Assembly (NCBI GenBank): GCA_016184125.1
Contig: JACPDG010000057.1
Span: 11,485 to 75,484 of the forward strand
From: Candidatus Rokuibacteriota bacterium
GTDB taxonomy: Bacteria; Methylomirabilota; Methylomirabilia; Rokubacteriales; CSP1-6
Length of the DNA stretch: 64,000 nt
Reading direction: 5' to 3'
In this document: positions 18,816 through 64,000 of the stretch, piece by piece
Numbering within the stretch: position 1 is the stretch's first letter
How the letters are laid out: every line of letters begins with the position of its first letter
Position numbers and translations under genes: made by a program
The notes under the pieces: model-generated
Seen by the model: only the letters and a program-made list of their open reading frames with translations
Databases searched by the model: none
What the model was told of the DNA's origin: nothing

Positions 18816-20191
18816 GCGAGCCGAGCGGTGACCGGGCCGAGGGGCCGGCCGCGCCCGAGGGGCGCGCGGCCGCGCCCGAGGGGCGCGCGGCCGCGCCCGA
18901 GGGGCGCGCGGCCGCGCCCGAGGGGCGCGCGGCCGCGCCCGAGGGCGTCGACGACCTCGGGCCGGGAGTCGGGGAGGCGCTGGAGCGCCTGCGGCCACGG
19001 GACCTCGCCGTGGGCATGCTCACGTACAACAACGCGGAGACGGCCGCGGCCGTCGCGCAGAGCGCGGTCCGGGGCATCGAGCAGTATCTTCCCGGCACGT
19101 CGGCGGTGATCCTCAGCGTCGACACCGGGTCCGTGGACGGGACGCCGGACACCCTCGTCGGGCCGTCGGCGGTGCCCGTCGTGTCGATGGTCCACCAGGC
19201 GCGGCTGGCCGAGCGTCTGACCGTCCCGTTCCACGGGGTACCGGGACGCAGCGAAGCGCTGCGCCGAACGCTCGCCGCGTCGCACCGGCTCGGCGCGCGG
19301 GCCCTGGTCCTGCTGGAGGCGGATCTCGCGTCGCCGCCACCCGAGTGGGTGGCGCGCCTGGCGCTGCCGGTGCTCGAAGACAAGGCCGGCTTCGTCGCGC
19401 CGGTCTACGCGCGGCACCGCTACGAGGGGACGATCACGAATCTCCTGCTGGCGCCGCTGATCCGCGCGCTCTACGGGCGCCGTGTCCGGCAGCCGTTCGG
19501 CGGCGAGCAGGCGCTGTCCGGGCGGCTCGTGGACCACCTGCTGATCCACCCGCAGTGGGACTGGCGGAGCGACGATCTGAGCGATGTCTGGGTGCTCGGC
19601 ACGGCCATCGCCGACGGCTTCAGCGTGTGGGAGACCTGGCTCGGCCGCCGGACGATCCGCTCGCGCGCCCGCACCACGGACCTGCCCTCGATGCTCGCGC
19701 AGACGCTCGGCGCCGTCTTCGCCGTCATGCACCGCCACCAGGACCTGTGGCTCGACGTCCGCGGCAGCGAGCCGCTGCCAGAAGTCGGCGAGCGCGTGCT
19801 GCCCGCGGTCGACCCCATCGAGGTCGACGTGCCCCGCATGATCGAGGGCTTTCGCCTGGGTCTCAGGGACCTCGTGCCGATCTGGGAGCACATCCTGGCG
19901 CCGGAGACGCTGGGCGACGTGCTGTCGCTCGAGACGGTCGACCCGGCGGAGTTCCGGTTCCCCGACGACGTGTGGGCGCGCGTCGCCTACGACTTCGCCC
20001 TCGGCTATCACTACGACGTCGTGTACCGCGACCACCTGCTCCGCTCGCTGGCGCCGCTCTACCTGGGCCGCACGGCAGCGTTCGTCCGGCAGACGCAGGG
20101 TCGCAGCGCAGAGGCCACGGAGGCGATGCTGGACGCCGTGGGCGCCGCGTTCGAGCGCCAGAAACCGTACCTGACGGACCGGTGGAGATGA
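18812..20191 (+). CDS. Glycosyltransferase (GT2/GT-A-like) with N-terminal (PEGRAAA)n repeat
   Basis: ATG overlaps the treT stop (ATGA). VGMLTYNNAETAAAV..SVDTGSVDGTPD resembles the GT2 PTYNE...DDGSTD region. The N-terminus is encoded by a perfect 21-bp tandem repeat. The precise family is unknown. Confidence 0.55.
   Translation: MSEPSGDRAEGPAAPEGRAAAPEGRAAAPEGRAAAPEGRAAAPEGVDDLGPGVGEALERLRPRDLAVGMLTYNNAETAAAVAQSAVRGIEQYLPGTSAVILSVDTGSVDGTPDTLVGPSAVPVVSMVHQARLAERLTVPFHGVPGRSEALRRTLAASHRLGARALVLLEADLASPPPEWVARLALPVLEDKAGFVAPVYARHRYEGTITNLLLAPLIRALYGRRVRQPFGGEQALSGRLVDHLLIHPQWDWRSDDLSDVWVLGTAIADGFSVWETWLGRRTIRSRARTTDLPSMLAQTLGAVFAVMHRHQDLWLDVRGSEPLPEVGERVLPAVDPIEVDVPRMIEGFRLGLRDLVPIWEHILAPETLGDVLSLETVDPAEFRFPDDVWARVAYDFALGYHYDVVYRDHLLRSLAPLYLGRTAAFVRQTQGRSAEATEAMLDAVGAAFERQKPYLTDRWR
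18845..18953 (+). repeat. Perfect 21-bp tandem repeat x5 (GCCCGAGGGGCGCGCGGCCGC) encoding (PEGRAAA)n at the N-terminus of the GT2-like gene
   Basis: Four identical 21-bp units plus one variant unit, read directly from the sequence. Confidence 0.9.
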
Positions 20192-23878: not shown

Positions 23879-24230
23879 CATCACGGGGGGACTATCGATG
23901 CCCCCCAAACCCCCCACGCTCGGAGCGCCCCGGCAAAGCCGTGGCGCTCCTCGACCACCGGATTCCTCCACGGACTCTGACATCATGGGGGGCCCCGACT
24001 TGGCCCCCCAACCCCCCCCACGCTCGGCGGCGGCCCGGGGAACCCGGCCCGCCCCTCGGGAATACGATCCGGCCACGGGCTCTGACATCATGGGGGGACT
24101 ACCGATGCCCCCCAAGCCCCCCGCACTCGGAGCCGTCCCGGGGGGTGCGCGGATGCACCCGTGGGGTGCGCGGACGCACCCGGGGAACCCGGGACGGCCC
24201 TCGACCACCGATGCCGTTCACGGGCTCTGA
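23875..24230. repeat. Tandem array of three GC-hairpin repeat units (R2) between treS and mak
   Basis: Three units, each CTGACATCA(C/T)GGGGGG-loop-CCCCCC-AA(A/G)CCCCCC-(A)CGCTCGG-..-CACGG(G/A)CTCTGAC. The third carries two GGGTGCGCGGA(T/C)GCACCC hairpins. Confidence 0.75.
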
Positions 24231-25623
24231 CGCGCTCGCCGCCTGGATCGCCGCACAGCGGTGGTTCGCCGGCAAGACGCGCCGCATCAGCGGGCTCGTC
24301 GTCGAGGACCGGGTGCCGGTCGCGGACGCGAGCGTCCTCGTGGTCGCGGTCGCGCTCGACGACGCGACCACGCAGCGGTACGCCGTGCCGCTCCGCGACG
24401 GACAGGCCATCGCCGACGCGCTCGACGAGGCGAGTTACGGTCGCGCGCTGCTCGACCTGATCGGGCGGGCCGATCGTGCGGCCGGTGAGTCAGGGGAGAT
24501 CGCCGGGCAGCCGACGCGAGCCTTCCCGCGGGATCTGCCTCCCGCCCCATCGGTGCGGCGGCTCGCCGGCGAGCAGAGCAACACCTCGATCGTGCTCGGC
24601 GAGCGTCTCATGCTGAAGCATTTCCGCCGCCTCGTGCCCGGACGCAATCCCGACGAGGAGATCGGCCGCTTCCTGACGGAGCGGACGTCGTTCACGCACG
24701 TCCCGCGGCTCGCCGGGCACCTCGAGTACCGCCGTGGCGCGGAGCGCTCCACGCTGGCCGTGCTGCACGAGCTCGCGACCGGCGCGGAGGACGGGTGGCG
24801 CTGGGTGCTCGACGAGCTGCGCGCCATGTACTCTGGGGTGGCGCCGGCGGCCGGCGAGCCGGACGACGTCGAGCGGCAGGCCGGTCCGACGCTCGACGCG
24901 CTTCGCCAGCTCGGCGCGGTCACCGCCGAGATGCACCTCGCCCTCGCGGGAGGCGTCGCGGATCCCGCGTTCTCACCGGAGCCGATCACGCCGACCGACG
25001 TGGCCGGCTGGTCGCGCGCCGTCGAGCGCCAGCTCGACGAGGCGTCGGGGGTCCTGGAGTCGAGCGGCGCGGCGGATGAGGCGTCCCGGGGAACGCTCGC
25101 GGTCCTGCGCGGCGAGCGTGCCCTGCTCTCCGCGGGGCTGATGGAGCTCGTGGGGCGCACGAAGATCCGCCACCACGGCGACTATCATCTGGGGCAGACG
25201 CTGTACCGGCCGCGCGAGCGGGAGTGGCTCGTGATCGACTTCGAGGGCGAGCCGCTGCGCCCGCTGGCCGAGCGCCGCGCGAAGCACGCGGCGCTCCGCG
25301 ACGTCGCCGGCATGCTGCGCTCGCTCGACTACGCCGCGGTGACCGCGATGCCGGCCGGCCTGGACGTCTGGGCGCGTGCGTGGGAGCGCGCCGCGTCAGC
25401 CGCGTTCGCCGCCGGGTACCGCGAGCGTGCCGCCGGCGCCCCGTTCCTGCCGGTGTCGCCGACGGCGTTCACGTCGGCGGTGGCCGTGTTCCTCGTGGAG
25501 AAGGCCGCGTACGAGGTCGTGTACGAGGCGGCTCACCGGCCCGCGTGGTTGCCGATCCCGCTCGGCGGGCTCACGCGGGCGCTCGCCGCGCTCACTGGCC
25601 GCCCTCGGGCTGGGGCGGCGTGA
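24211..25623 (+). CDS. mak: Maltokinase (maltose 1-phosphate synthase, Pep2/Mak)
   Basis: The N-terminus (AAWIAAQRWFAGKTRRI) and C-terminus (HGDYHLGQTL..IDFEGEP..RDVAGMLRSLDYAA) align with Mak/Pep2. The ATG start lies inside the terminal part of the upstream repeat unit. Confidence 0.8.
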   Translation: MPFTGSDALAAWIAAQRWFAGKTRRISGLVVEDRVPVADASVLVVAVALDDATTQRYAVPLRDGQAIADALDEASYGRALLDLIGRADRAAGESGEIAGQPTRAFPRDLPPAPSVRRLAGEQSNTSIVLGERLMLKHFRRLVPGRNPDEEIGRFLTERTSFTHVPRLAGHLEYRRGAERSTLAVLHELATGAEDGWRWVLDELRAMYSGVAPAAGEPDDVERQAGPTLDALRQLGAVTAEMHLALAGGVADPAFSPEPITPTDVAGWSRAVERQLDEASGVLESSGAADEASRGTLAVLRGERALLSAGLMELVGRTKIRHHGDYHLGQTLYRPREREWLVIDFEGEPLRPLAERRAKHAALRDVAGMLRSLDYAAVTAMPAGLDVWARAWERAASAAFAAGYRERAAGAPFLPVSPTAFTSAVAVFLVEKAAYEVVYEAAHRPAWLPIPLGGLTRALAALTGRPRAGAA

Positions 25624-26104
25624 ACGTCATCCGGAGGGCGAGCCAGCCCTCCTTGTCGAACTCGACGAGCAGCCCCGACCGGTAGAAGAAGACCGGCGTC
25701 TCGTGGTCCTTGCCCGCACGCGTCGGCACGCCCCATCCGATCACGATGGTGTTGCGCGTGAAGATGCCGGGGTTCGGCTCGAGCCGCATGATTCGCACGA
25801 CGTCCGGCTGATAGCCGGCCGCCGCGAGGAGGCCGAACTCGAACGTGAGCCGGCGGATGCCTGGCGGCGCGCGGTCGCCTTCGTAGACCCACTGCGTCGC
25901 GTCGTAGCTCTCGATCTTCAGGGCCTCGGAACGGGTCGGCTCGCCCCACCGCGCGCGGACCACCTCGATCGTGCTCTCGCCCGGAACGATCGCCCCCCAC
26001 TCCGCCGCGTGGGCAGGTCGAGGCGCAACGACCGCGACCAGGACGACGACGGACACGAGCAGCGCGGCGGACAGGACAACACGGTGACGCACGGTCCTCA
26101 TCAT
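25592..26104 (-). CDS. Secreted hypothetical protein (signal peptide)
   Basis: MMRTVRHRVVLSAALLVSVVVLVAVVAPRPAHA is an N-terminal signal, followed by a 170-aa ORF with no recognisable domain. Confidence 0.5.
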   Translation of the reverse strand: MMRTVRHRVVLSAALLVSVVVLVAVVAPRPAHAAEWGAIVPGESTIEVVRARWGEPTRSEALKIESYDATQWVYEGDRAPPGIRRLTFEFGLLAAAGYQPDVVRIMRLEPNPGIFTRNTIVIGWGVPTRAGKDHETPVFFYRSGLLVEFDKEGWLALRMTFTPPQPEGGQ

Positions 26105-26180
26105 GCCACGCTCCGGCCCAGAACATTTCAATGAACCCGGCGCGGGACGATCTGAACCGGATGCGCGCTAGAATCCCCTC

Positions 26181-26666
26181 ATGGCGACGGTCCGCGCCCG
26201 CTACCGCTTCACGGTCGACCACTTCCACCGCATGGCGGCCGCCGGCGTCTTCACCGAGGACGACCGCGTGGAACTGCTGGAGGGAGAGATCACCGTGATG
26301 AGCCCGATCGGCGACCGCCATGTCGCCTGCGTCGACTTCCTCAACGATCGTTTCGGCGAGGCCCTCCGCGTCCGCGCGCTCGTCCGCGTGCAGAGCCCGG
26401 TGCGGCTCGGTCCCCACAGCGCGCCCCAGCCCGACATCGCACTGCTGCGCCGGTCAGCCGACTACTACCGCGCCGTCCCTGCCACGCCACGAGACGTCTT
26501 CCTCGTCATCGAGGTCGCGGACGCTGACGTGGACTATCCCGACATGGCTGGGCCGGAAACTGATCCGCTTCCTCGGCTCCCTGGCCGTCGAAGCCGGGGG
26601 CCGTCGGCCGTCCAGAGCCCGATCGACACGATGCTCGGCGGCTCAGGCTTCGCGGGTCCTGCGTGA
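26181..26666 (+). CDS. Uma2-family (DUF820) putative endonuclease, with divergent or degenerate C-terminus
   Basis: FTVDHFHRMAAAGVF.EDDRVELLEGEI..MSPIGDRH..DIALL..VIEVADADVDYP matches the Uma2 pattern. The C-terminal 40 aa do not look canonical. Confidence 0.6.
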   Translation: MATVRARYRFTVDHFHRMAAAGVFTEDDRVELLEGEITVMSPIGDRHVACVDFLNDRFGEALRVRALVRVQSPVRLGPHSAPQPDIALLRRSADYYRAVPATPRDVFLVIEVADADVDYPDMAGPETDPLPRLPGRRSRGPSAVQSPIDTMLGGSGFAGPA

Positions 26667-26757
26667 CGCACCGAGATAAGCCGACGGGATAGGCTGACGG
26701 GATAGGCGGCGACGAGCTGCTTGCGAACACCCCGCCCTCAGCAGAATGAAAGCCTGA

Positions 26758-27243
26758 GTGATGGCGAGTCCCTACAGCGCACCGCGCCTCTGGGCGTACT
26801 TCCAGAAGCTCGAAGGCCGGCCGATGTTTCTCATGCTTCGAAGTCAATGGGAGACGGTCAAGATCCGGCTTGGCGAGCGTGTGCCTATCGAGATCTCGAC
26901 CACACCAATGGCGCGGCTTCTGACAGCGGCCGATATTGCGGCGGCGGTCGCGGAGCGGAAATCAGAGTACGAGGCGACGATCGCCATCTACCGTCGGGAC
27001 CCGAAGGATGCTGCCCACGCCGCGCCGATTAACGTGGACCGCTACCTCGTGTGGGAACGCATGCCCGATCATCGGGATTTGTTCGCCATGGTGAACGCCG
27101 CATCAACATCCGACAATGCCAATCTGCAGGGCTTCCTGGCGGACCACGTGTTTCTCGTGAAGGAAGGGTCTGGCGATGATCACTGGCTCCCGGCGGTCCC
27201 GATCGAGATCCGAGCTGTCATCGCGAAACGGAACCTGCGATGA
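26758..27243 (+). CDS. Hypothetical protein in lower-GC islet
   Basis: 161-aa ORF, protein-like composition, no recognised motif. Confidence 0.4.
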   Translation: MMASPYSAPRLWAYFQKLEGRPMFLMLRSQWETVKIRLGERVPIEISTTPMARLLTAADIAAAVAERKSEYEATIAIYRRDPKDAAHAAPINVDRYLVWERMPDHRDLFAMVNAASTSDNANLQGFLADHVFLVKEGSGDDHWLPAVPIEIRAVIAKRNLR

Positions 27244-27386
27244 GGGCCGCAGAACTTCGCGGTACAGCGGACCGGCGGGCTCGCGTTGCTCGCCCCCCGG
27301 CCGCTGACCGCGGCGTTGGGCAGCTTCTGCAAAGGCGAGGCGTCGGTGTCAACGTCGTATACTCGTGATACGGAGGCGATGCGCGC

Positions 27387-27596
27387 TTGATCACGTTCAA
27401 GGTCGAGATTGAACGAGAGGACGACGGCCGCTGGCTGGCGGAGGTCGTCGAACTGCCCGGTGTCCTCGTGTACGGCGAAACGCAGGAGGTGGCTCTGTCA
27501 AGGGTTCAGGCGCTTGCTCTCCGAGTCATTGCCGAGCGTCTGGAGCACGGCGAGGCTGAACCTGAACTGCTGAGCATCTCCTTCAACGCGGCGTGA
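27387..27596 (+). CDS. hicB: Type II toxin-antitoxin system HicB-family antitoxin
   Basis: The 69-aa ORF MITFKVEIEREDDGRWLAEVVELPGVLVYGETQEVALSRVQALALRVI matches the HicB/UPF0150 N-terminal fold. GGAGG lies 9 nt upstream of the TTG start. Confidence 0.7.
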   Translation: MITFKVEIEREDDGRWLAEVVELPGVLVYGETQEVALSRVQALALRVIAERLEHGEAEPELLSISFNAA

Positions 27597-27805
27597 GCGC
27601 CTGGCCGAGCAGCCGCGCTCGCCGGGTGCTGGCGGCGCTCCTGAGGATTGGCTGGGTGGTCAAGCGGCAATCCGGTTCCCACCGAACGTTATCCCGCACG
27701 GGATGGGCAGACGTCGTGTTCGCCTTCCACGACGACGAGGAGATCGGGCCCCGCATGCTGGCCCGGATCGCGAAGCGCACTGGTTTGCGACCCGAGGACC
27801 TGTGA
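27593..27805 (+). CDS. hicA: Type II toxin-antitoxin system HicA-family toxin (mRNA interferase)
   Basis: 70 aa. LLRIGWVVKRQSGSHRTLSRTGWADVVFAFHDDEEIGPRMLARIAKRTGL matches the HicA/YcfA pattern (G-W...GSH...P.H....K). The GTG start overlaps the hicB TGA. Confidence 0.75.
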   Translation: MSAWPSSRARRVLAALLRIGWVVKRQSGSHRTLSRTGWADVVFAFHDDEEIGPRMLARIAKRTGLRPEDL

Positions 27806-28004
27806 GCGCCCAACACTGCCGAACTACAGGATTCACCCCGCGGCCTTCGGGCGCGGGTGATCCTGGACGTTAGATGGCGGGGACAATGCTCGTGCCTTTG
27901 AGATCTGTCTTCTCGACGAGGCAGGCATCCTTCGTAACCGTCGGTTCGCTAGACGGCGCTGTCCGCCGCCTGGCCGCGGTCGTCAAACGAAGTGTCTGGC
28001 AGGA

Positions 28005-28301
28005 GTGGGCTTCGCCGCGTTGGCCATCTTTGTCGTCTTCTTCGCCGCATCGACAGTCTTTGGCGGCGTCCTCGTGACTTCAACGCGGCCGTTCGCTCAG
28101 AAGGTTGGCGCGGGCATGTTCATCGGCGCATTGATGAACGCAAGCGCTCTGGCCCTGTGGCGGTCCACGCAGCCCTTGACTGAGGAGGACATCTCGTTGG
28201 TGTCGGCGGGGATTCAGAAGGCGCTCGACACCCCGTCTAACAAGCCGTTCCACCTGCCGCCGGCCCTCGCTCCCTGCGGTCGCTCGGTCCGCCGCAGGTG
28301 A
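28005..28301 (+). CDS. Small putative membrane protein
   Basis: 98 aa with two hydrophobic helices (FAALAIFVVFFAASTVFGGVLV; GAGMFIGALMNASALALW). The reading frame is uncertain because overlapping ORFs exist. Confidence 0.3.
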   Translation: MGFAALAIFVVFFAASTVFGGVLVTSTRPFAQKVGAGMFIGALMNASALALWRSTQPLTEEDISLVSAGIQKALDTPSNKPFHLPPALAPCGRSVRRR

Positions 28302-28328
28302 ACGGCAGCGTTCGGCGCACCAAGCGGC

Positions 28329-28763
28329 GTGTCGACCGCTGACTTCCGGCTTCGGCCGACCGCGGCTCTGTGCAACCGCCGCGGGTGCTCACCGCGAGCG
28401 TTGAGCGTCGGGTCGAGCAAGGGCAATGAGGGTAATGATCGAATGGCGAACACGTGGATCACCGACATGAGGCACTATCTCGATGGCTCCGGAGCCTTGG
28501 TCGAGATGCCCGGGCCCGCTCTGAGCTTGGCGCTGTTCCTCGGAGCGATCGTGGCCTGGGTGACAAGCGGCCGGGCCGCTGGGGACGGACGGACCAACGT
28601 GCCCTGTCGTCGGAGCCCGGGTCGCAGCAGGTGCCCCGGCGAGATCGAAGCTTCGCTGGCATCGGACGGCGCGACGATCTCATGGCGCTGTCCGGTCTGC
28701 GGAGATAACGGCCTGACGCGAGGATGGGAGGGGACGCGTTGGGATCGGCGAGGAACCGGCTGA
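28329..28763 (+). CDS. Hypothetical protein with CxxxxxxxC...CxxC zinc-ribbon-like motif
   Basis: 144-aa ORF. The likely start is at the internal MANTWITDMRHYL (about 28443). It contains CRRSPGRSRC...CPVCG. Confidence 0.35.
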   Translation: MSTADFRLRPTAALCNRRGCSPRALSVGSSKGNEGNDRMANTWITDMRHYLDGSGALVEMPGPALSLALFLGAIVAWVTSGRAAGDGRTNVPCRRSPGRSRCPGEIEASLASDGATISWRCPVCGDNGLTRGWEGTRWDRRGTG

Positions 28764-28794
28764 CGTTCGGCGGGAGAACCCGATTCGATCGGGG

Positions 28795-30393
28795 CTAATA
28801 CCCGAGCGCCGCCCCGTCGCCGCGGGGATCGGCGCCACCCATGAGCGTCCCGTCACGCACGACGACTCCATGCGCGTGGCCGGCCCGGTGGAAGAAGTCC
28901 GGCCCGGGCTTGACGCGGTGACCGCGGCGCTCGAGCGACGCCAGCACCCGGCGTCCAACGCGCCGCTCGACGTGCACGGTGTCCGCCGGCTCGCCGGCGG
29001 AGAGCGAGCCGACGACGAACCGCGGGCGCTCGATGGCCTCCTGGATGTCGACGCCGTAGTCGAGGACGTTCGGCAGGACCTGCAGGTGGAACATCGCCTG
29101 GCCGTGGCCGCCCATCGTCGCGAACGCCATCACCGGGCGCGCGTCGCGGGTGACGATCGAGGCCGTCAGCGTGTGGAACGGCCGCTTGCGGGGTGCGAGG
29201 GCGGTCGGGTGCGACGCGTCCAGCGAGAAGTGGCGGCCACGGTTGTGCAGCAGCACGCCCGTGCCGGGAGGCACGACGCCGGAGCCCCACGCGTTGTAGA
29301 GGCTCTGGATGACGGCGACCACGTCGCCGCGACCGTCGGCGACGACGAAGCCGGTCGTGTCGCCCTCGGGATCGCCCCAGGTGTACGGCTGCGCCTTCGC
29401 GGGATCGTAGAGGGCCCGGCGCCGCCCTGCGTAGTCCTTCGAGAGCAGCGCGTCGACGGGGACGCGCACGTGCGCCGGGTCGCCGATCCAGCGGTCGCGG
29501 TCGGCGTAGGCGAGCTTCGCCATCTCGATCAGGACGTGCAGGTGCTCCGTGGAGCCGAGCCGCCGGCGGGCGACGGGAACGCCCTCGAGCAGGTTGAGCG
29601 CCAGCAGCGCCGCGAGCCCTTGCGTCGGCGGCGGCGTCTGGTAGACCGTGGCCCCTCGATACGTCGTGTGGATCGGCTCGCTCCACTCGCCCGTGTGCGC
29701 GGCCAGGTCGTCGGCCGTGAGGAAGCCGTCCGCCTCCATGCGCCGCGCGATCGCCTCCGCGATCCGCCCGCGATAGAAGAGGTCGGGTCCCTCCACGCCG
29801 AGGCCTTCGAGCGTCCGCGCGAGATCGGCCTGCACCAGGAGCTCGCCTGGCGCCGCAGGACGCCCTCCGGGCGAGAAGATCCGCCGCCATTCGGGATCGG
29901 TGATCGCCGGCGTCCACTCGGCGGCCGCCTGGCTGACGAGCGAGGTGGACGGGAAGCCGTGCTCCGCGTAGTGGATGGCGGGACGCAGCAGGTTTGAGAG
30001 CGGGCGCGAGCCGAAGCGCTCGAGGAGCATCGCCCATCCACGGACGCAGCCGGGAACGCTGACGGTCGCAGGCCCGAGGGTCGGCAGCTGGGTGTAGCCG
30101 CGACGCGCGGCCTCGCCGAACGTCGCGCGCGTCCCCGAGCGTCCGCTTCCGTTCAGGCAGTGAACCCGGCGCGTGGCCGCCTCGTAGTAGAGGCAGAACA
30201 GGTCGCCGCCCGCACCGCAGCAGTAGGGCTGCGTGACGGCGAGCACGGCGTTCGTCGCGACGGCGGCATCCGCGGCCGTACCGCCGGCCTTGAGCGTCCC
30301 GACGCCCGCCAGGGTGGCGAGAGGGTGCGCCGATGCGACGAGGCCTTCGCGTCCCATCGCGACCGGCCGGTGCGAGTATCCGATGTTCGGCAC
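28795..30393 (-). CDS. ggt: Gamma-glutamyltransferase family protein
   Basis: 532 aa. The TTGF-type autoprocessing region (GDTTGFVVADGRGDVVAVIQSL) and the overall GGT pattern are present. Confidence 0.85.
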   Translation of the reverse strand: MPNIGYSHRPVAMGREGLVASAHPLATLAGVGTLKAGGTAADAAVATNAVLAVTQPYCCGAGGDLFCLYYEAATRRVHCLNGSGRSGTRATFGEAARRGYTQLPTLGPATVSVPGCVRGWAMLLERFGSRPLSNLLRPAIHYAEHGFPSTSLVSQAAAEWTPAITDPEWRRIFSPGGRPAAPGELLVQADLARTLEGLGVEGPDLFYRGRIAEAIARRMEADGFLTADDLAAHTGEWSEPIHTTYRGATVYQTPPPTQGLAALLALNLLEGVPVARRRLGSTEHLHVLIEMAKLAYADRDRWIGDPAHVRVPVDALLSKDYAGRRRALYDPAKAQPYTWGDPEGDTTGFVVADGRGDVVAVIQSLYNAWGSGVVPPGTGVLLHNRGRHFSLDASHPTALAPRKRPFHTLTASIVTRDARPVMAFATMGGHGQAMFHLQVLPNVLDYGVDIQEAIERPRFVVGSLSAGEPADTVHVERRVGRRVLASLERRGHRVKPGPDFFHRAGHAHGVVVRDGTLMGGADPRGDGAALGY

Positions 30394-48728: not shown

Positions 48729-48783
48729 TTTCCCTCGGTTTTGGCTGGGACGGTGTTGAGTACAAATCGGGATTCGAGACAGA

Positions 48784-48820
48784 CGCCGCGCGGGATGCCC
48801 CTCGCGCGGCGTTTTTCTTT
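48784..48820 (+). terminator. Intrinsic-terminator-like hairpin plus T-tract inside the cspA-1 leader (possible attenuator)
   Basis: GCCGCGCG-ggatgcccct-CGCGCGGC followed by GTTTTTCTTT. Confidence 0.4.
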
Positions 48821-48900
48821 GCCTTCCAATTCCGGAAGGTGACCCCGCCATCCCGGCGGGGATCAGCCGGGGCAGGAGTCCCCAAGGAGAGTCGCAGGAC

Positions 48901-49101
48901 ATGGCACAGGGACGTGTGAAGTGGTTCAACGATGCGAAGGGGTACGGGTTCATCACGCAGGACGGCGGCGAGGACGTGTTCGTCCACTACAGCGCCATCC
49001 AGGCTCAGGGCTTCAAGACGCTGTCCGAGGGTGACCTGGTCGAGTTCGAGGTGACGCGCGGTCCGAAGGGTCTCCAGGCGGCGAACGTCCGCAAGCTCTA
49101 A
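48901..49101 (+). CDS. cspA: Cold-shock protein
   Basis: [28 protein letters not shown]. 66 aa, RNP1/RNP2 motifs, AAGGAG RBS. Confidence 0.9.
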
Positions 49102-49173
49102 GCTCCTGCGTCCCGGCATGCGGCTCCGGATCCACGTCATCTATGGGTCCGGAGCGGCCCACCGTCCGACTCA

Positions 49174-49219
49174 GTTCGAGCCAACAATCGACCGCCGGGC
49201 GGTCGATTGTTGCTCGAAC
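49174..49219. repeat. P1 palindromic element, copy 1 (46 bp near-perfect palindrome)
   Basis: GTTCGAGCCAACAATCGACCGCC-GGG-CGGTCGATTGTTGCTCGAAC. Confidence 0.8.
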
Positions 49220-49224
49220 TCTCA

Positions 49225-49271
49225 GTTCGTAGAAACCATCGGCCGCGAACGCGGCCGATGGTTTCACGAAC
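49225..49271. repeat. P2 palindromic element, copy 1
   Basis: GTTCGTAGAAACCATCGGCCGCG-AA-CGCGGCCGATGGTTTCACGAAC. It lies immediately after P1 copy 1, separated by TCTCA. Confidence 0.8.
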
Positions 49272-49375
49272 TCTCATCCGAGCAGATGACCGAGCCGCGG
49301 GGTCGTCTGTGCCGGAACGTGAACGATCATCCAGCGTGACCGCCGCGGCGACACCGCCAAGCGAGGCAAGAGGAC

Positions 49376-49640: not shown

Positions 49641-50057
49641 GGGAGAGCGGGCAAAAAAGAGCCCCGACGGCTGCTGCGACGCTGCGCGATCCCTCATGGC
49701 GCGTCGCCCCGCGTGGTGAGCGCGGGAACCGTCGGGGCCGGTGGTGCCTGGTTCTCCCAGGCGGCCCACCAGGGACTCGTGTGGACCTTGCCCTAGGAGG
49801 CAACCACCTCACAGATCACCGTAGGGCTACACATCGACTGGATCACCTCCTATTCTCGGCAAGGGCGCCACGCGGGCCCAGGTCCCACTTACCCAGAACC
49901 GGATGCCGACTCCCGGCCCGGGGCCCGGTCACGTTCTGCCACCGGCGTCATTACCGGCGGGGACGCTCGAGGAGCGCTGTTGTCCGCTCCGACCGGTATT
50001 TGATTGCATCCTACACGAGCCCGTGGCGCCGCCAAACGAAAAAGTGGTGAGCGTGCG

Positions 50058-50441
50058 CTACTCGACGACGATCCGTCCGCGATTACGTTCCCAGAGTCCC
50101 GCGCCGATGCCCTGCACGCGCCGGATCTCCTGCGGTTTCTTGAAGACGCCGTGCGTCGTCCGGTACTGGACGATCTTCTCGGCGACCTTGCGGCCGATGC
50201 CGGAGAGCGTCATGAGCTGATCGACGCTCGCCGTGTTGATGTTCACGGGTGCCGAGGCGGCGACCTCGGACTTCGTGTCCGTCACGGCCGTCTTCTCGGT
50301 TCGAGCGACAATCGACCGCCGCGGCGGTCGATTGTCGCTCGAACTCTCCGGCGCGGCGGATGCAGCCGGCGTCAGCAGGAATGGCAAGATCGAGGCAACG
50401 ACGAGGGCGATCGCGAGCGACGAGCGAAGTGCGATGCGCAT
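50058..50441 (-). CDS. comEA: ComEA-like helix-hairpin-helix DNA-binding protein (signal peptide, linker, HhH)
   Basis: Signal MRIALRSSLAIALVVASILPFLLTPAASA, and C-terminal NINTASVDQLMTLSGIGRKVAEKIVQYRTTHGVFKKPQEI. The linker ESSSDNRPPRRSIVART is encoded by a P1 palindrome copy. Confidence 0.7.
   Translation of the reverse strand: MRIALRSSLAIALVVASILPFLLTPAASAAPESSSDNRPPRRSIVARTEKTAVTDTKSEVAASAPVNINTASVDQLMTLSGIGRKVAEKIVQYRTTHGVFKKPQEIRRVQGIGAGLWERNRGRIVVE
50299..50345. repeat. P1 palindromic element, copy 2 (inside the comEA-like ORF, in frame)
   Basis: GTTCGAGCGACAATCGACCGCC-GCGG-CGGTCGATTGTCGCTCGAAC. Confidence 0.8.
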
Positions 50442-50470: not shown

Positions 50471-50635
50471 ATGATCCGTTCACGTCCGAGTTCATCGGGG
50501 GACTATCGATGCCCCCCAAGCCTCCCAACTCGGAGCGCCCCGGGGGGGTGCGCGGACGCACCCGTGGTGCGCGGACGCACCCGCCAAAGCCGTGGCGCTC
50601 CTCGACCACCGAATTCCTTCACGGGCTCCGCGGCG
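50471..50635. repeat. GC-hairpin repeat copy R5 (full, two GGGTGCGCGGACGCACCC-type hairpins)
   Basis: TTCATCGGGGGACTATCGATGCCCCCCAAGCCTCCCAACTCGGAGCGCCCCGG GGGGGTGCGCGGACGCACCC GTGGTGCGCGGACGCACCC GCCAAAGCCGTGGCGCTCCTCGACCACCGAATTCCTTCACGGGCTCCG. Confidence 0.75.
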
Positions 50636-54031: not shown

Positions 54032-54050
54032 GGCTTGCTGTCTCCTCTCG

Positions 54051-54097
54051 GTTCGTGGAAACCATCGGCCGCGAAGGCGGTCGATGGTTTCGCGAAC
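54051..54097. repeat. P2-like palindromic element, copy 2 (hybrid P2 left arm / P1-like right arm)
   Basis: GTTCGTGGAAACCATCGGCCGCG-AA-GGCGGTCGATGGTTTCGCGAAC, followed by TCTCAG. It lies between the 54100..54606 gene end and the AhpD-like gene RBS. Confidence 0.7.
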
Positions 54098-54099
54098 TC

Positions 54100-54606
54100 T
54101 CAGCGGCCCTTCTGCGTGCTCAGCTCCGCCGCCCGCGCCTCGGCCATGCCGCGCAGGGCGAAGAGCACGCGCACGAGGCACTGCTGGACGAGGAGCGCGT
54201 CCTGCGTGAACGGATCGGCCAGCCAATCGCGTGCCCAGCCGGGCTTCTCGCTCGCGAAGCCGAGCGTCGGCGAGAGCGATTGCAGGCGCAGCAGCAGGTC
54301 GTCGGGCGGCAGGCCGCTGGCGCGCAGCCGCGCCACCACCGCCGCCCGCACCGCCGCGTTCCAGACGCCCGTGAGCCCCTCGAGGAGCGCCTGGTAACAG
54401 GTCAGATCGGCCTTCGACTGCAGGTGCTGCAGCACCGCGGGGACGAGCGCGTTGACGGTCGCGTTGCCTTCGTCGTCCTGGCCGAAGAGCGGTCCGATGA
54501 CCGGATCCTTCTCCGGCGCGGGCAGGTGCTCGAGCAGCGCGACGGCCGCGGCGGCCGGGGTCGGCGGGAGCCGGGCGAGTCTCTCGAGCAACGGGACGTC
54601 CGCCAT
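54100..54606 (-). CDS. Hypothetical protein
   Basis: The ATG (MADVPLLERLARLPP..) is preceded by GGAGGGAGG. 168 aa, no recognised domain. Confidence 0.45.
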   Translation of the reverse strand: MADVPLLERLARLPPTPAAAAVALLEHLPAPEKDPVIGPLFGQDDEGNATVNALVPAVLQHLQSKADLTCYQALLEGLTGVWNAAVRAAVVARLRASGLPPDDLLLRLQSLSPTLGFASEKPGWARDWLADPFTQDALLVQQCLVRVLFALRGMAEARAAELSTQKGR

Positions 54607-54607
54607 G

Positions 54608-56080
54608 TCAGCGCCTCCCTCCATCGACGCCCGTGGGTCGCGGGACGCCGATCTCGGCCCCGGCGCGGACACCCGCCCCGGGACGCGCCGGCGCGCCGGA
54701 AGCGCCGCCTCGCGCGAGGTCCTGAGCCCGGCCGCCGGGGACGAGGAACGCCGACGCGAGCGCGACGACGGCGACGCCGAGCCCGACGACGAAGACGCCG
54801 TGCAGCGCATCGCTCATGTCGAGCCCACTCGCGAGCCGGCGTCCCATGACCGCGCCCATGAGCGAGATCCCGATCGCGCCGCCGATCGTCCGGAAGAACT
54901 GCGTCATCGACGTCGCGGTGCCGAGCTCGCTGCGCTCGACGGCGCTCTGGACCGCAATCAGCATCGGCACCATGGTGAGCCCCATGCCGACGCCGCCGAC
55001 GAGCGCGTCGCGCATCGCCGCGGGCAGCGTGAGCGACGGCGACCAGCGCGACAGCAGCACGAAGCCGCCGACCAGACACGCCATGCCCGCGACGACGAGC
55101 CCGCGGTATCCGACGCGGAGGACGAGCCGCGCGCTGACGATCGACATGACCACCCAGCCGAGCACGAACGGGATGAGCACGATGCCGGCACCGGTCGCCG
55201 TCATCCCGCCGACCGCCTGTAGGAAGAGCGGCACGAACTGGATCGCGCCGAACATCGCCATGCCGGCGAGAAACCCCGTCGCCGATGCGGCGAGCACCAT
55301 GCGGTTCGTGAACAGCCTGAGCGGAACGATCGGCTCGGCCGCCCGGCGCTCCACACCGACGAAGCCGGCGAGCGCGGCGAACGCGACGGCCCCGGCGCCG
55401 ACGACGGCAGGTCCTCCGGACGGTTGCGTCCTCGTCGCCTCGAGCGCGAGCAGCAGCGCCGAGACCCCCGTGGTGAACAGCGCGATGCCCGCGTAGTCGA
55501 TGGCCGCCCTCCGCCGCGAGGACCGGTCCTCGCGGAGCGCCGAGACGACGAGCGCGATCGCGATCACGCCGAACGGCAGGTTGATGTAGAACACCCACCG
55601 CCAGGAGACGTGGTCGGTCAGCAGGCCGCCGATGAGCGGCCCGAGCAGCGACGCGATGCCCCACACGCCCGACAGGTAGCCTTGCATGCGGGCGCGGCGC
55701 TCGAGGCCGTAGAGCTCGCCGACGATCGTCATCCCGATCGTCATGAGGCTTCCCGCGCCAAGCCCCTGGATCATGCGGAAGCCGATGAGCTGGCCCATGG
55801 TCTGCGCCGCGCCAGAGAGCGCCGAACCGAGCAGGAACACGATGACCCCGATGACGTAGATCGGCCGGCGACCGTAAAGATCCGACAGCCGGCCCCAGAG
55901 CGGCATCATGACGGTCGCCGTCAGCAGGAAGCCGGATCCGACCCAGGAGTAGATCTCGATCCCGCCGAGGCTCCCGACGGCGTTCGGCATCGCCGTCGCG
56001 ACCACGGTCGACTCCATCGCCGCAAGGAAGATCGTCATCATCACGCCCGCGAGGGCGCGGCCCTTCTTCGTTCCCTCCAT
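54608..56080 (-). CDS. MFS transporter, DHA2 (EmrB/QacA-like, 14 TMS) family
   Basis: GRLSDLYGRRP, the LGPLIGGLLTD motif and 14 predicted TM segments. Length 490 aa. Confidence 0.8.
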   Translation of the reverse strand: MEGTKKGRALAGVMMTIFLAAMESTVVATAMPNAVGSLGGIEIYSWVGSGFLLTATVMMPLWGRLSDLYGRRPIYVIGVIVFLLGSALSGAAQTMGQLIGFRMIQGLGAGSLMTIGMTIVGELYGLERRARMQGYLSGVWGIASLLGPLIGGLLTDHVSWRWVFYINLPFGVIAIALVVSALREDRSSRRRAAIDYAGIALFTTGVSALLLALEATRTQPSGGPAVVGAGAVAFAALAGFVGVERRAAEPIVPLRLFTNRMVLAASATGFLAGMAMFGAIQFVPLFLQAVGGMTATGAGIVLIPFVLGWVVMSIVSARLVLRVGYRGLVVAGMACLVGGFVLLSRWSPSLTLPAAMRDALVGGVGMGLTMVPMLIAVQSAVERSELGTATSMTQFFRTIGGAIGISLMGAVMGRRLASGLDMSDALHGVFVVGLGVAVVALASAFLVPGGRAQDLARGGASGAPARPGAGVRAGAEIGVPRPTGVDGGRR

Positions 56081-58285: not shown

Positions 58286-58332
58286 GACGTCATGGGGGGA
58301 CTATCGAAGCCCCCCACGACGTCGGTTCGCGC
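58286..58332. repeat. Minimal GC-hairpin repeat copy R9 (first hairpin module only, flanked by the inverted CCGACGTC/GACGTCGG)
   Basis: CCGACGTCATGGGGGGACTATCGAAGCCCCCCACGACGTCGG. Confidence 0.6.
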
Positions 58333-58341
58333 GCTCTGAGA

Positions 58342-58388
58342 GTTCGAGCAACAATCGACCGCCGCGGCGGTCGGTTGTTGCTCGAACT
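58342..58388. repeat. P1 palindromic element, copy 3 (convergent intergenic region)
   Basis: GTTCGAGCAACAATCGACCGCC-GCGG-CGGTCGGTTGTTGCTCGAAC, preceded by CTCTGAGA. Confidence 0.8.
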
Positions 58389-58406
58389 GAGTCGTCCGTC
58401 TCGACC

Positions 58407-60774: not shown

Positions 60775-60896
60775 GGCCCTCAGGCCGAGCGGGAAGTCGA
60801 GGAGCGCCGCGGGTTCCCCGCGGCGCTTCCGAGCGCCGGGGGGGGGTGGGGAGGGGGGTGGGGGGCCATCTCGGGGCCCCCCATGAGGTCGGTTCA
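60775..60896. repeat. GC-hairpin repeat copy R10 (reverse orientation), abutting the dnaB stop
   Basis: ..TTCCGAGCGCCGGGGGGGGGTGGGGAGGGGGGTGGGGGGCCATCTCGGGGCCCCCCATGAGGTCGGTTCAG. Confidence 0.65.
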
Positions 60897-63800
60897 GAAC
60901 GGCTGGGAGGCGCGAGCCGGGTCGGCGATGTTCTCGAAGCGCGCGTACTCCGGCAGGAAGACGAGCTTCACGGTCCCGATCGGGCCGTTGCGCTGCTTGC
61001 CGATGATCACCTCGGCGATCTTCTCTTCCTCGGGCGGCACGTCTTCCTTGTACACGCGCGAGCGATAGAGGAAGAGGATCAGGTCCGCGTCCTGCTCGAG
61101 GGCGCCCGAATTGTGACTGACGATACCGTCCGCGAGCCACGACGCAGGACCGGGAACTGTCAAGTCGAAGACGTCCTCCTCACCGTCGGCCGCCACCCGC
61201 ACGACTCGGTCCCAGAAGAGATCGCTCGTTGCCTGCGCCTCGAGCTCCTCGTCGCAGAGAATGTTTGCGTACTCAGCAACGACCGCGCGCGACGGCGCGC
61301 ACCGGAGCTGCGACGTACCCCCGTACGCCGTGCCGCGCAACCCGGCCATCCGTCGCTGCGAGATGCGGCGCTCGCGCATCAGACGCTTCACGCGCTCGAA
61401 CACCTCGCGCGGCAGCGTATCGACGTTCGTGTTCACGTCGCGATCCGCGAGCGCAGCGGCGAGTGCTCGCGCCTGGGGCTCGCGAGGACCGAACGCGCCG
61501 ACGGCGTCGAGAAAACGCCGCTGGTCGGCGCCGCCGGACACTGACACGAAGAAGCTCGTGCGATAGGTTCCCTTCCGGGCCGACGAGATCCTCGCAACGA
61601 TCCCGAGCCTCATCAGCAGCGCGGCGACGTCCGTCGCCAGTCCCGCACTGTTGGTACTGTAGAAGACCGAGTGACTGCCTCGCCCACGCCGAGGAACGAT
61701 AGTGCCATCCGTCGCCCACAGGTGTCGGAGGAGGAGGGCGATCTGCGCGTTCGAGAGGCGGAAGGCATCCTCGGGAACCCGCTTCTCGTGCGAGCGCTGC
61801 CCGAAGATCCCGAGCTGGCGCAGCCATGCGTTCACGCCCCTCGGGTGCCACCGGTCGCCGTTGCCGCTGATGAGCAGCTGATGCCAACCTCGCCGACCAC
61901 GGTACCGCGTGACGTCACACCCGAACTCCTCGCGCGCCGCCTCTGCAACGATGGCGCTGTTCTCTTCGGAGCCCGTCGTGTACCGGAGTGGCTGATGGCT
62001 GAGGGAGCTGCCGTCACCGATGAGCTGGCCGAGGAGCGCAACGCGAGCGTCGGGCCAGGACTCGGGGGACAGCGGCTCCGGGAGATGCCGCGCAAGCGCG
62101 ACGCGGTCGCCTTTGATCAATTCGGTGACCGTCTGCCATCCGCGACCGGTGAAGACCCGGTGCTCGGCCGTCGCCCGGATGGTACGGCCGCTCGCCAGCC
62201 CCACGCGGAAGACCGGTCGTGTCCCGACCTTCCAGATCCGCTCGCTCTTCGCCGCGACGATCTTCCCGGCCGGTGACATGGCGAGCACCTCGGGGGAGGT
62301 GTCCACGAGCTCCCGGATCGGAGCTCGACGTCCGTCGGAAAGCAGCACGACCGTGTCTGCCGTCACGCATTCGCGAAGGTCGGAGAGCTGCGGACGGAAG
62401 TCGCGCTGCGCGCGGCTCTCGACGGCGCGCGACAGCTGCGAGAGGGCCACGACGGGGATGTTGAGCTCCTTCGCGAGGGCCTTCAGGGATCGCGAGATCT
62501 CGGAGATCTCCTGCTGGCGGTTCTCCATCGACGCGCGGCCGCGCATGAGCTGCAGGTAGTCGATGACGACCAGATCCAGCCCGTGCTCGGCCTTCATCCG
62601 CCGCGCCTTCGCGCGCGCCTCGAGCACGGTGATGCCCGGGCTGTCGTCGATGTAGATCTTCGCCTCGCTGAGCCGTCCCGCCGCGGCCGTGAGCCGATGC
62701 CAGTCGGCCGCCGTGAGATAGCCGGTGCGGACGGATTGCGAGTCGACCTTCGCCTCCGAGCACAGCATGCGCTGGACGAGCTGCTGGGACGACATCTCGA
62801 GCGACAGCACGAGCACGCTGGCGTGCAGGTGCACGCCGACGTGCTGCGCGATGTTGAGGGCGAAGGCCGTATTGTGCGTGACCACGTAGTCGCCGGTGAT
62901 GTACGTCCGCGAGGGATGCGTCACCGCGATGCACTGCGCCTCGGACAGGCGCGTCGGCTCGACGGAGACGAAGACCGGCCAGCGCCGCCGGCGAGGCGCC
63001 GAGAGCGGGCGCGCCCGCTTCGACGAGAGCTGGAACATCGTCTTCGGCTCGGAGTGCTGGATGTTGCAGACGTACGCGGGCCTCCCGGCATGCCGCGTCC
63101 CGGCGTGGCTGTATGTGGTGCGCCGGCGGCGGACCGAGCACCACCCGCCCAGGGAGCGGACGAGATCCGCGACATCGCGCGCCAACCGCGCGCTCGTCGA
63201 GCAGAACCGAGCGCTGCCCCAGCGTTCCACCCACCCGTCGGTGTCCATGAGACCGGACAGGAGCGCGAGACGGGCGTCGCGGGAAGCGTTCAGATAGACG
63301 GCGGGGATGAACTTCTCCTCCGAGCGGATGCCCCACAGGCCGAGGCGTCTCAGTGACTCCATGAGCGTGTTCGGGGCAACCCCGGCCACGCCCTTGCGAT
63401 GCGCACCGGCGGCCTGGACGATACGCCAGTCGTCACCGCCCCCGGCGCGAAGCGCGAACGCCGCCGTGGCATGCTCCAGAACGAGCTCGCGGATCTCGGC
63501 GTCGGCCGTCGAGAACATCAGGCTGCTGCCGGAGAGCTTCCCGTCGCCGAGCCGCGCGCCGAGCAGCCAGGGGTCGATCGGGAGCGGCTCGTCGTGGCCG
63601 AAATCGCCCGACGGCGCGTCGATCCAGAGCCGGTGCCGATAGCGCGCTCGGCGGAGCAGCGCGGCGACGCGCTCGGTGGTCAGCACGCGCGGCTCGCGCC
63701 AGCGGCGGTCATGCACCCGCCAGAGATGCTCGGCGGTGCATTCCGTCGATCGGCCGTCGGAGAACGTCACCCGGTGGATCTGCTGCCGCCCCTGCGGGAA

Positions 63801-64000
63801 GATGCCGCTCACGAACGAGGGCCGGCCGTCGATGGAGGCGAGCGCGTCGCCGAGTCGCAGGTCGCCCATGCGCTTCCATCCCGTCACCGTCTTGACGGGC
63901 GCGTCGAGCGGCTGCGCCTTCCCCATGCTCGGGCGGCCCGCGATGATGATGAAGTCCGACGGCTGGAACCCCGACGTCTCCATGTCGAGCTTCTCGAACC
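60894..64000 (-). CDS. dnaB: Replicative DNA helicase DnaB (partial, N-terminus beyond window) containing two inteins
   Basis: Extein pieces are ..[13 protein letters not shown] / [30 protein letters not shown] / [16 protein letters not shown].. (Walker A, H4 motif). They are interrupted by a 349-aa element and a 420-aa element. Confidence 0.9.
61110..62369 (-). other. Class-1 intein with LAGLIDADG homing endonuclease, at the DnaB site before SGAIEQDAD
   Basis: It starts [22 protein letters not shown] and ends [20 protein letters not shown] followed by Ser+1. [10 protein letters not shown] and [12 protein letters not shown] are LAGLIDADG motifs. The end block resembles the Ssp DnaB intein. 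Confidence 0.85.
62871..63917 (-). other. Class-3 intein (Ala1, WCT-type) in the DnaB P-loop, with a LAGLIDADG homing-endonuclease domain
   Basis: Inserted between GRPSMGK and T. It starts with Ala. Block B is [12 protein letters not shown] (T7, H10, W12). Block F carries Cys (AQCIAV). Block G is VVTHN followed by Thr+1. LAGLIDADG-like [10 protein letters not shown] and [12 protein letters not shown] are present. Confidence 0.7.

Follow-up and report, generated by a model that had tools for sequence, protein, structure and literature searches.

The 64-kb window analyzed here (the whole stretch of DNA, with a G+C content of about 70%) contains five copies of a short palindromic repeat, which together with 10 further copies at unrelated loci on soil and groundwater contigs form a real family of REP/MITE-like hairpins in Rokubacteria. 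We did not find this family described in the literature searched, which yielded no paper on palindromic repeats in Rokubacteria or Gemmatimonadetes. From the comparison of filled and empty sites below, we consider it very probable that the palindromes are inserted repeats that are mobile or were so until recently.

Two of the five copies lie head to tail in the spacer between csp1 (whose product is identical to MBI2217983.1) and csp2. The first, copy A of the P1 type, occupies 49170 to 49224 on the plus strand and consists of CTCA, a palindrome with one bulged C (49174 to 49219), and TCTCA; copy B, of the P2 type, follows right behind it (49225 to 49276, plus strand), with one bulged A in its palindrome (49225 to 49271) and again TCTCA at its end. 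This is the only adjacent pair in the window, and it is direct rather than inverted, with TCTCA as the separator. Copy C, a second P1, spans 50294 to 50349 on the plus strand (TCTCG, a perfect 23+23 palindrome at 50299 to 50344, and TCTCC) and is located within a minus-strand comEA-like coding sequence. The P2-like copy D (54046 to 54102, plus strand) is composed of TCTCG, a palindrome at 54051 to 54097 with G·T pairs and one mismatch near the apex, and TCTCA, and falls between the TGA stop codon (54100 to 54102) of a minus-strand open reading frame (54100 to 54810) and the GAGGAG ribosome-binding site of the next minus-strand gene, which starts at about 54032. Copy E, a P1 with one mismatch, is found on the minus strand at 58337 to 58392 (palindrome 58342 to 58387), its inverted orientation being judged from its flanks, TGAGA-palindrome-TGAG. 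Its neighbors are an enoyl-CoA hydratase gene and an amino-acid permease gene that converge on it, and it is enclosed by a second, G5-headed repeat that is described below. The initial annotation had placed five related palindromes at 49174, 49225, 50299, 54051, and 58342, and all of them are present there; its description of these palindromes as perfect applies strictly to the 50299 copy alone, the others having a bulged base or mismatch(es).

The palindromes are 46 to 47 bp long, with stems of 21 to 23 bp, loops of 0 to 4 nt, and often one bulge near the base. Folded as single-stranded DNA, the copies reach −21.6 to −28.9 kcal/mol, with z-scores of −7 to −11. The half-site pattern matches seven times in the window against 0.88 expected, a count that none of 100 shuffles reached, and no palindrome half-sites occur in the window outside the full palindromes. 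Run over the whole 64-kb window with filters off, a covariance model returned exactly the five copies, four of them at 72 to 78 bits (copy B, 78.3 bits) and copy A (49174) at 33 to 45 bits, with the next best match at 14 bits. The window contains no other family of long near-perfect palindromes. All five copies are confined to 9.2 kb; counting the tandem pair as one, the probability of four sites falling inside 9.2 of 64 kb is, by simple arithmetic, about 0.01.

Copies outside the window were sought by two patterns. The first, a strict palindrome pattern applied to GTDB species genomes, proved too strict and matched only a Rokubacteria metagenome-assembled genome (L001) and a 1.3-kb contig labeled Gemmatimonadetes (L002), with one copy each. 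A looser pattern applied to JGI metagenomes returned 48 loci, eight of which hold true members (L011, L014, L018, L029, L039, L043, L052, and L056, most of them supplied by one soil sample), the remainder being chance matches or unrelated palindromes. The neighbors of the 10 further copies differ, with NuoF, ABC permeases, fabG-acpP, and a histidine kinase among them; the positions occupied include the fabG-acpP gap (L014), a gap between ABC-permease genes, and a gap between convergent genes. A pattern scan of IMG/VR gave 24 loci and no family member, and a BLAST search of plasmids gave just one chance match of 35 nt. In Rfam no model matched at its gathering threshold, only generic miRNA-hairpin models appearing far below threshold, and the three translated frames of P1 had no match in a protein search.

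Alignment of the resulting 15 copies shows that the fold is conserved: 95.6% of stem cells pair, compared with 29 to 41% in slid controls. Eight of the 22 stem pairs have changed on both sides, and the observed covariation score was not reached in any of 500 shuffles. The stem thus varies by compensatory change, and GTTCG, ATCG, and the flanks stay constant, although for the metagenome copies the search pattern itself dictated part of this constancy, in GTTCG, ATCG, and the right-hand TC. P1 and P2 have ends, core, and flanks in common and a stem kept by compensatory change; they belong to a single element family and are no random terminators, as had been proposed from the window alone. More copies were found in other Rokubacteria-like contigs, at loci that are unrelated. 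The copy at 54051 had been taken for a P2/P1 hybrid. As GCGGTCGAT is the common right apex across the wider family, this copy can be explained without P1-P2 recombination.

The flanking bases also form a pattern. On the left, the counts are C in 14, T in 10, C in 15, and R in 15 of the 15 copies; on the right, T in 14, C in 14, T in 13, and C in 12. CTC is present on the left in 10 of 15 copies and on the right in 12. The initial annotation had the copies followed by TCTCA or TCTCAG; a shared flank is indeed there, and its better form is CTCR on the left and TCTC(A/C) on the right.

Filled and empty versions of the same sites can be compared in syntenic relatives, which encode the same csp1 protein and whose DNA is about 80 to 88% identical to the window. 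Copies A and B are missing from the orthologous csp1-csp2 spacer in five of these loci (L003 to L007), where the sequence reads ...CGCTCCCGAGCA, in place of GACTCA(P1)TCTCA(P2)TCTCATCCGAGCA in the window. The spacer measures 274 nt in the window and about 167 to 170 nt in the relatives, a difference of about 103 nt that corresponds to 51+52. A conserved hairpin after csp1 (49124 to 49154, plus strand; CTCCGGATCC...GGGTCCGGAG) lies upstream of the palindromes and is also present in the relatives without them; it is therefore not part of the element, and the palindromes were added to a spacer that was already structured. At copy C, CTTCTCG/GGCGCC in L003 corresponds to CTTCTCG(palindrome)TCTCC/GGCGCG in the window, and at the place of copy D, L003 and L004 have a gap of about 40 nt. 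A relative at about 80 to 88% identity has no palindrome copies in 20 kb of synteny with the window, which points to a lineage-specific gain. A further comparison is offered by the second repeat, which without the palindrome reads GGCGC/TCCGAG (window copies at 50497 and 52844) and is filled in L056 as GGCACGCTCA(palindrome)TCTCCGAGCG.

Three further features were observed around the cold-shock genes. Between csp2 and the comEA-like gene, the stretch from 49654 to 49860 on the minus strand gives a sub-threshold match to Ms_IGR-5, an Actinobacteria small RNA (35.4 bits against a gathering score of 45; E value 1.7e-6). It ends in a hairpin and U-run, is also found downstream of csp1 in L008 to L010, and includes AGGAGGUGAUCC, which we take to be complementary to the 3′ end of 16S rRNA; this stretch is possibly a conserved small RNA beside the cold-shock genes. 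A canonical terminator-like hairpin with a 14-bp stem and a T-run is located at 48781 to 48814 (plus strand), between the divergent dctP (minus strand) and csp1 (plus strand) genes and in the likely csp1 leader. This position is odd for a terminator, and the hairpin may act in attenuation or belong to a cold-shock leader. A match to the cspA thermoregulator at 48749 to 49154 is weak (22.6 bits, far below threshold).

Two of the 15 copies, copy C and the one in L029, are read in frame within coding sequences as 17 extra codons. The comEA-like gene (50058 to 50441, minus strand) encodes 127 residues that comprise a signal peptide, a linker, and an HHH_3 domain (residues 64 to 124). Copy C is a clean 51-nt insertion in the linker, translated as SSSDNRPPRRSIVARTE, such that the PE/K junction of the L003 orthologue becomes PE(17 residues)K in the window. 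In L029, the 51-nt unit adds 17 codons inside the HATPase_c domain of a histidine kinase, and the Pfam score of this domain rises from 58.2 to 65.7 bits once the 17 residues are deleted.

As to how the palindromes spread, we lean on balance toward a model in which they are a very small non-autonomous mobile element, made of the hairpin and a few flanking bases, that moves as single-stranded DNA by RAYT-like cleavage between C and T (C^T). The insertion unit would be TCR, the 46- to 47-nt palindrome, and TC, about 51 nt in all, cut and joined at the C^T of CTC. The agent would likely be a single-strand HUH/Y1, RAYT-like enzyme that is encoded elsewhere in the genome and recognizes the folded hairpin. 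The E. coli enzyme TnpA-REP binds to a hairpin with a bulge, on each side of which it cuts between C and T (PMC3479197), a precedent that makes a RAYT-like single-strand enzyme the best available model. Insertion at the C^T of CTC fits every filled and empty site seen. As an example, the rule would convert GGCGC^TCCGAG into GGC.CGCTCA(palindrome)TCTCCGAG, exactly the L056 sequence. Moreover, the first copy ends in a new CTC at which a second insertion would be possible, and this would explain the head-to-tail P1-P2 pair. Any effects on the host, such as mRNA 3′-end protection, pausing, or the 17 extra linker residues, would be secondary.

The 53 open reading frames of the window that were scanned against Pfam encode glycogen and trehalose, cell-shape, transport, and other housekeeping functions, with no transposase among them. 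The RodA protein of the window is identical to MBI2217975.1. A tblastn search of 419 kb of collected loci with E. coli RAYT and IS200 queries, which is a weak test, likewise gave no match. A few other features of the window were noted in passing. A GC-rich tandem/inverted repeat with a 21-nt period (GCGCGGCCGCGCCCGAGGGGCGCGCGGCCGCGC) lies at 18841 to 18938, just past a trehalose-synthase-like gene. The region from 24300 to 28800 is lower in GC (0.656 at 26 to 28 kb), with short open reading frames without Pfam matches and a Uma2-family putative restriction endonuclease (26181 to 26666), and may be an inserted segment. An open reading frame of about 1029 residues (60894 to 63983, minus strand) is syntenic with the DnaB gene of L003 and far longer than the usual DnaB, which suggests an intein.

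Movement by a DDE transposase, which we judge unlikely, would make the palindrome a minimal MITE whose arms are the fused terminal inverted repeats of an unseen insertion sequence that enters at CTC with a 3-bp duplication. The whole element is an inverted repeat, and the frequency of CTC on either side would suit a 3-bp target duplication equally well; the filled and empty sites, too, fit a 48-bp A/G-palindrome-T element plus a duplicated CTC. The initial annotation had raised a TCTCA target duplication, and to the extent that a direct CTC repeat flanks most copies, this idea stands. However, within a copy the left flank does not change along with the right (ATGCA/TCTAC and GCGCA/TCTCC; as trinucleotides, TGC/CTA in L014, CGC/CTC in L018 and L052, and CCC/CTC in L039), and a classical variable target-site duplication is hence not shown. 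The right flank is also more constant than the left, as expected of sequence that travels with the element, and the compensatory stem changes together with the recurrent one-base bulge suggest recognition of a folded strand. No insertion sequence with matching ends was found in the collected loci, plasmids, or IMG/VR, which are limited collections.

The second repeat of the window, the more abundant of the two, bears on a further question, namely whether the palindrome moves by itself. The motif GGGGGACTATCGAWGCCCCC occurs eight times in the window against 0.01 expected, and each occurrence heads a modular element of 105 to 200 bp (heads at 23886, 24093, 33528 on the minus strand, 50497, 52844, 53609, 56416, and 58295, with a tandem array of three at about 23.87 to 24.29 kb). 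In the element that hosts copy E, the head motif GGGGGACTATCGAAGCCCCC spans 58295 to 58314 on the plus strand. The modules are a G5 hairpin, CAAGCCCCCC, a variable central hairpin GGAGCGCC...GGCGCTCC, TCGACCACCG, and ...TTCACGGGCTCTGACATCATG; the repeat is often bounded by CTGAC, containing a gene's TGA stop. The relative L003 lacks the copy at 50497, and related elements are found in L001, L002, L018, L052, and L056. Among these, L002 (JACOVF010000029.1, 1.3 kb) combines the P palindrome with the exact G5 head motif, two repeats of Rokubacteria type, under its Gemmatimonadetes label; mis-binning is the probable cause, the alternative being that the repeats occur in more than one phylum.

In copy E, L001, L018, L052, and L056, the palindrome occupies the same internal point of this larger element (...GC.CA(palindrome)TCTCC/A-GAGCG...), beside genes that differ from locus to locus. 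This recurrence means that the palindrome prefers the site, that the composite spreads as a unit, or both, and the four Rokubacteria-like loci together with 58342 indicate that some copies may be passengers of the larger repeat. Taken further, the same observation would make the palindrome an interchangeable module of the G5-headed repeat, in a BIME-like mosaic, that is not mobile alone and whose isolated copies are remnants; the csp site, which also reads ...TCCGAGCA after the palindromes, could be taken in this sense. We find this account improbable, given that the sites in comEA, the L029 kinase, L014 (fabG-acpP), L039, L043, and at 54051 bear no trace of the larger element, that the insert at sites free of it is exactly the 51- to 52-nt unit, and that seven of the eight larger elements in the window are without the palindrome.

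Still less probable, in our view, is a reading of the palindromes as RNA or DNA structures under host selection, for instance protectors of transcript ends, hairpins for pausing or termination, or palindromic operators for a dimeric regulator, that are kept for their function and not spread by transposition. The hairpins are very stable, several copies are located just past stop codons or between convergent genes, and REPs are known to stabilize mRNA 3′ ends (PMC3479197); a secondary effect on mRNA stability or pausing may exist. Yet orientation relative to transcription, as read from the flanks, is mixed (about five sense, five antisense, and two convergent), two copies are translated inside proteins, the sites are absent in close relatives with the same genes, and no Rfam family matches. 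Across the family, the six G·T pairs are not in excess of the four A·C pairs, a balance that favors neither strand, and the stem sequence differs between copies, which argues against a fixed operator. The terminator role suggested in the initial annotation is unlikely: since no copy has a U-tract, the tails being TCTCA or TCTCC, these are not canonical intrinsic terminators, and a terminator scan accepted none of the copies as canonical, its one call at a palindrome being a sub-stem inside copy E for which the other arm served as "tail". In addition, csp1 has its own conserved hairpin, one copy is inside the comEA-like coding sequence, and copy D is positioned between the stop codon and the next ribosome-binding site of a same-strand gene pair.

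Several other identities were considered and rejected. Integron attC sites have the core sites RYYYAAC ... GTTRRRY at their two ends, and the palindromes, which run from GTTCG to CGAAC, show the opposite order. Paired DNA-uptake sequences do not fit, as single half-sites are nowhere in the window, nor does an operator site, as the stem sequence varies among copies. Permuted parS-like GTTTCAC half-sites in P2 are missing from P1 and were judged coincidental.

Among known repeat systems, REPs offer several points of comparison. They are defined as the GTAG and CGTC super-families by an unpaired GTAG or CGTC tag at one end of the stem-loop, with a size of 20 to 40 bp and a stem of 5 to 13 bp (PMC3733652). 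The palindromes share with REPs and BIMEs a short, interspersed, and mostly extragenic nature with occasional copies in genes, subfamilies that differ by complementary stem changes, a common one-base bulge, and, as in BIMEs, the combination with other repeat motifs into mosaics (PMC3733652). They also have CT on both sides, matching the C^T cleavage of TnpA-REP (PMC3479197). In contrast to REPs, they have no unpaired GTAG or CGTC tag and end instead in CTCR and TCTC, with GTRG appearing only in the paired left arm of P2-like copies and absent from P1; the stem, 21 to 23 bp against 6 to 13 bp, has about twice the length of any REP stem given in PMC3733652, and the element is 46 to 47 bp long rather than 20 to 40 bp. 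REPs and REPINs are characterized by high copy number and by doublets in inverted orientation; the window has five copies in 64 kb, all of them inside 9.2 kb, and its lone doublet is direct. Moreover, a REPtron has a RAYT gene with copies of the repeat on its flanks, and no RAYT was found in the window open reading frames scanned or the 419 kb of collected loci, and REPs occur mainly in Proteobacteria, unlike the present repeat in Rokubacteria.

The palindromes likewise resemble bacterial MITEs such as Correia/NEMIS and RUP, in that they are small, non-coding, and fully inverted-repeat, with a short direct repeat at the ends and locations near or inside genes. They differ in being about 51 nt rather than about 100 to 150 nt long, in having no internal unique sequence, in sharing the same CTC flank in most copies instead of one that changes from site to site, and in having no known parent insertion sequence. 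With the Rickettsia palindromic elements (RPEs), they have in common in-frame palindromic insertions translated as an extra peptide, here of 17 residues in the ComEA linker and the histidine-kinase ATPase domain. RPEs, however, are 100 to 150 bp long, unrelated in sequence and host, and mostly in coding regions, whereas the present copies are mostly intergenic; the behavior is shared, not the membership. Finally, IS200/IS605-type single-strand elements (IS608 and ISDra2) and their miniature derivatives, PATEs, resemble the palindromes in the recognition of a folded hairpin, which for the latter is proposed here, in insertion by a short specific flanking sequence, and in having no variable target duplication. 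In those elements the two subterminal hairpins differ from each other, and guide bases determine the tetra- or pentanucleotide at which cleavage occurs, whereas here one hairpin would serve as both ends, with no TnpA or TnpB near the palindromes.

Interspersed palindromic repeats that act as miniature transposons are already well known, and the present finding is modest in this respect, not a new kind of system. If the single-strand C^T model is right, the element would be among the smallest mobile DNA units known in bacteria, and a REP-like system outside the GTAG and CGTC super-families would exist in a phylum known only from metagenomes. The clean filled and empty sites and the in-frame protein insertions provide material for work on the spread of hairpin elements and on their tolerance by proteins. 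On the practical side, repeats of this kind break assemblies and mislead gene callers and binning, as may be the case for the 1.3-kb contig L002 with its Gemmatimonadetes label. A more speculative proposal, which we put forward only tentatively, is that Rokubacteria harbor a class of ultra-short, 51-nt single-hairpin mobile elements for which a candidate HUH-type enzyme would use one long bulged hairpin as both ends and cut at the C^T of CTC; being short and stop-free, such elements would be tolerable as 17 codons in proteins. Should this be true, the element may, together with the G5-headed modular repeats, add to the large, repeat-rich genomes of this uncultured phylum.
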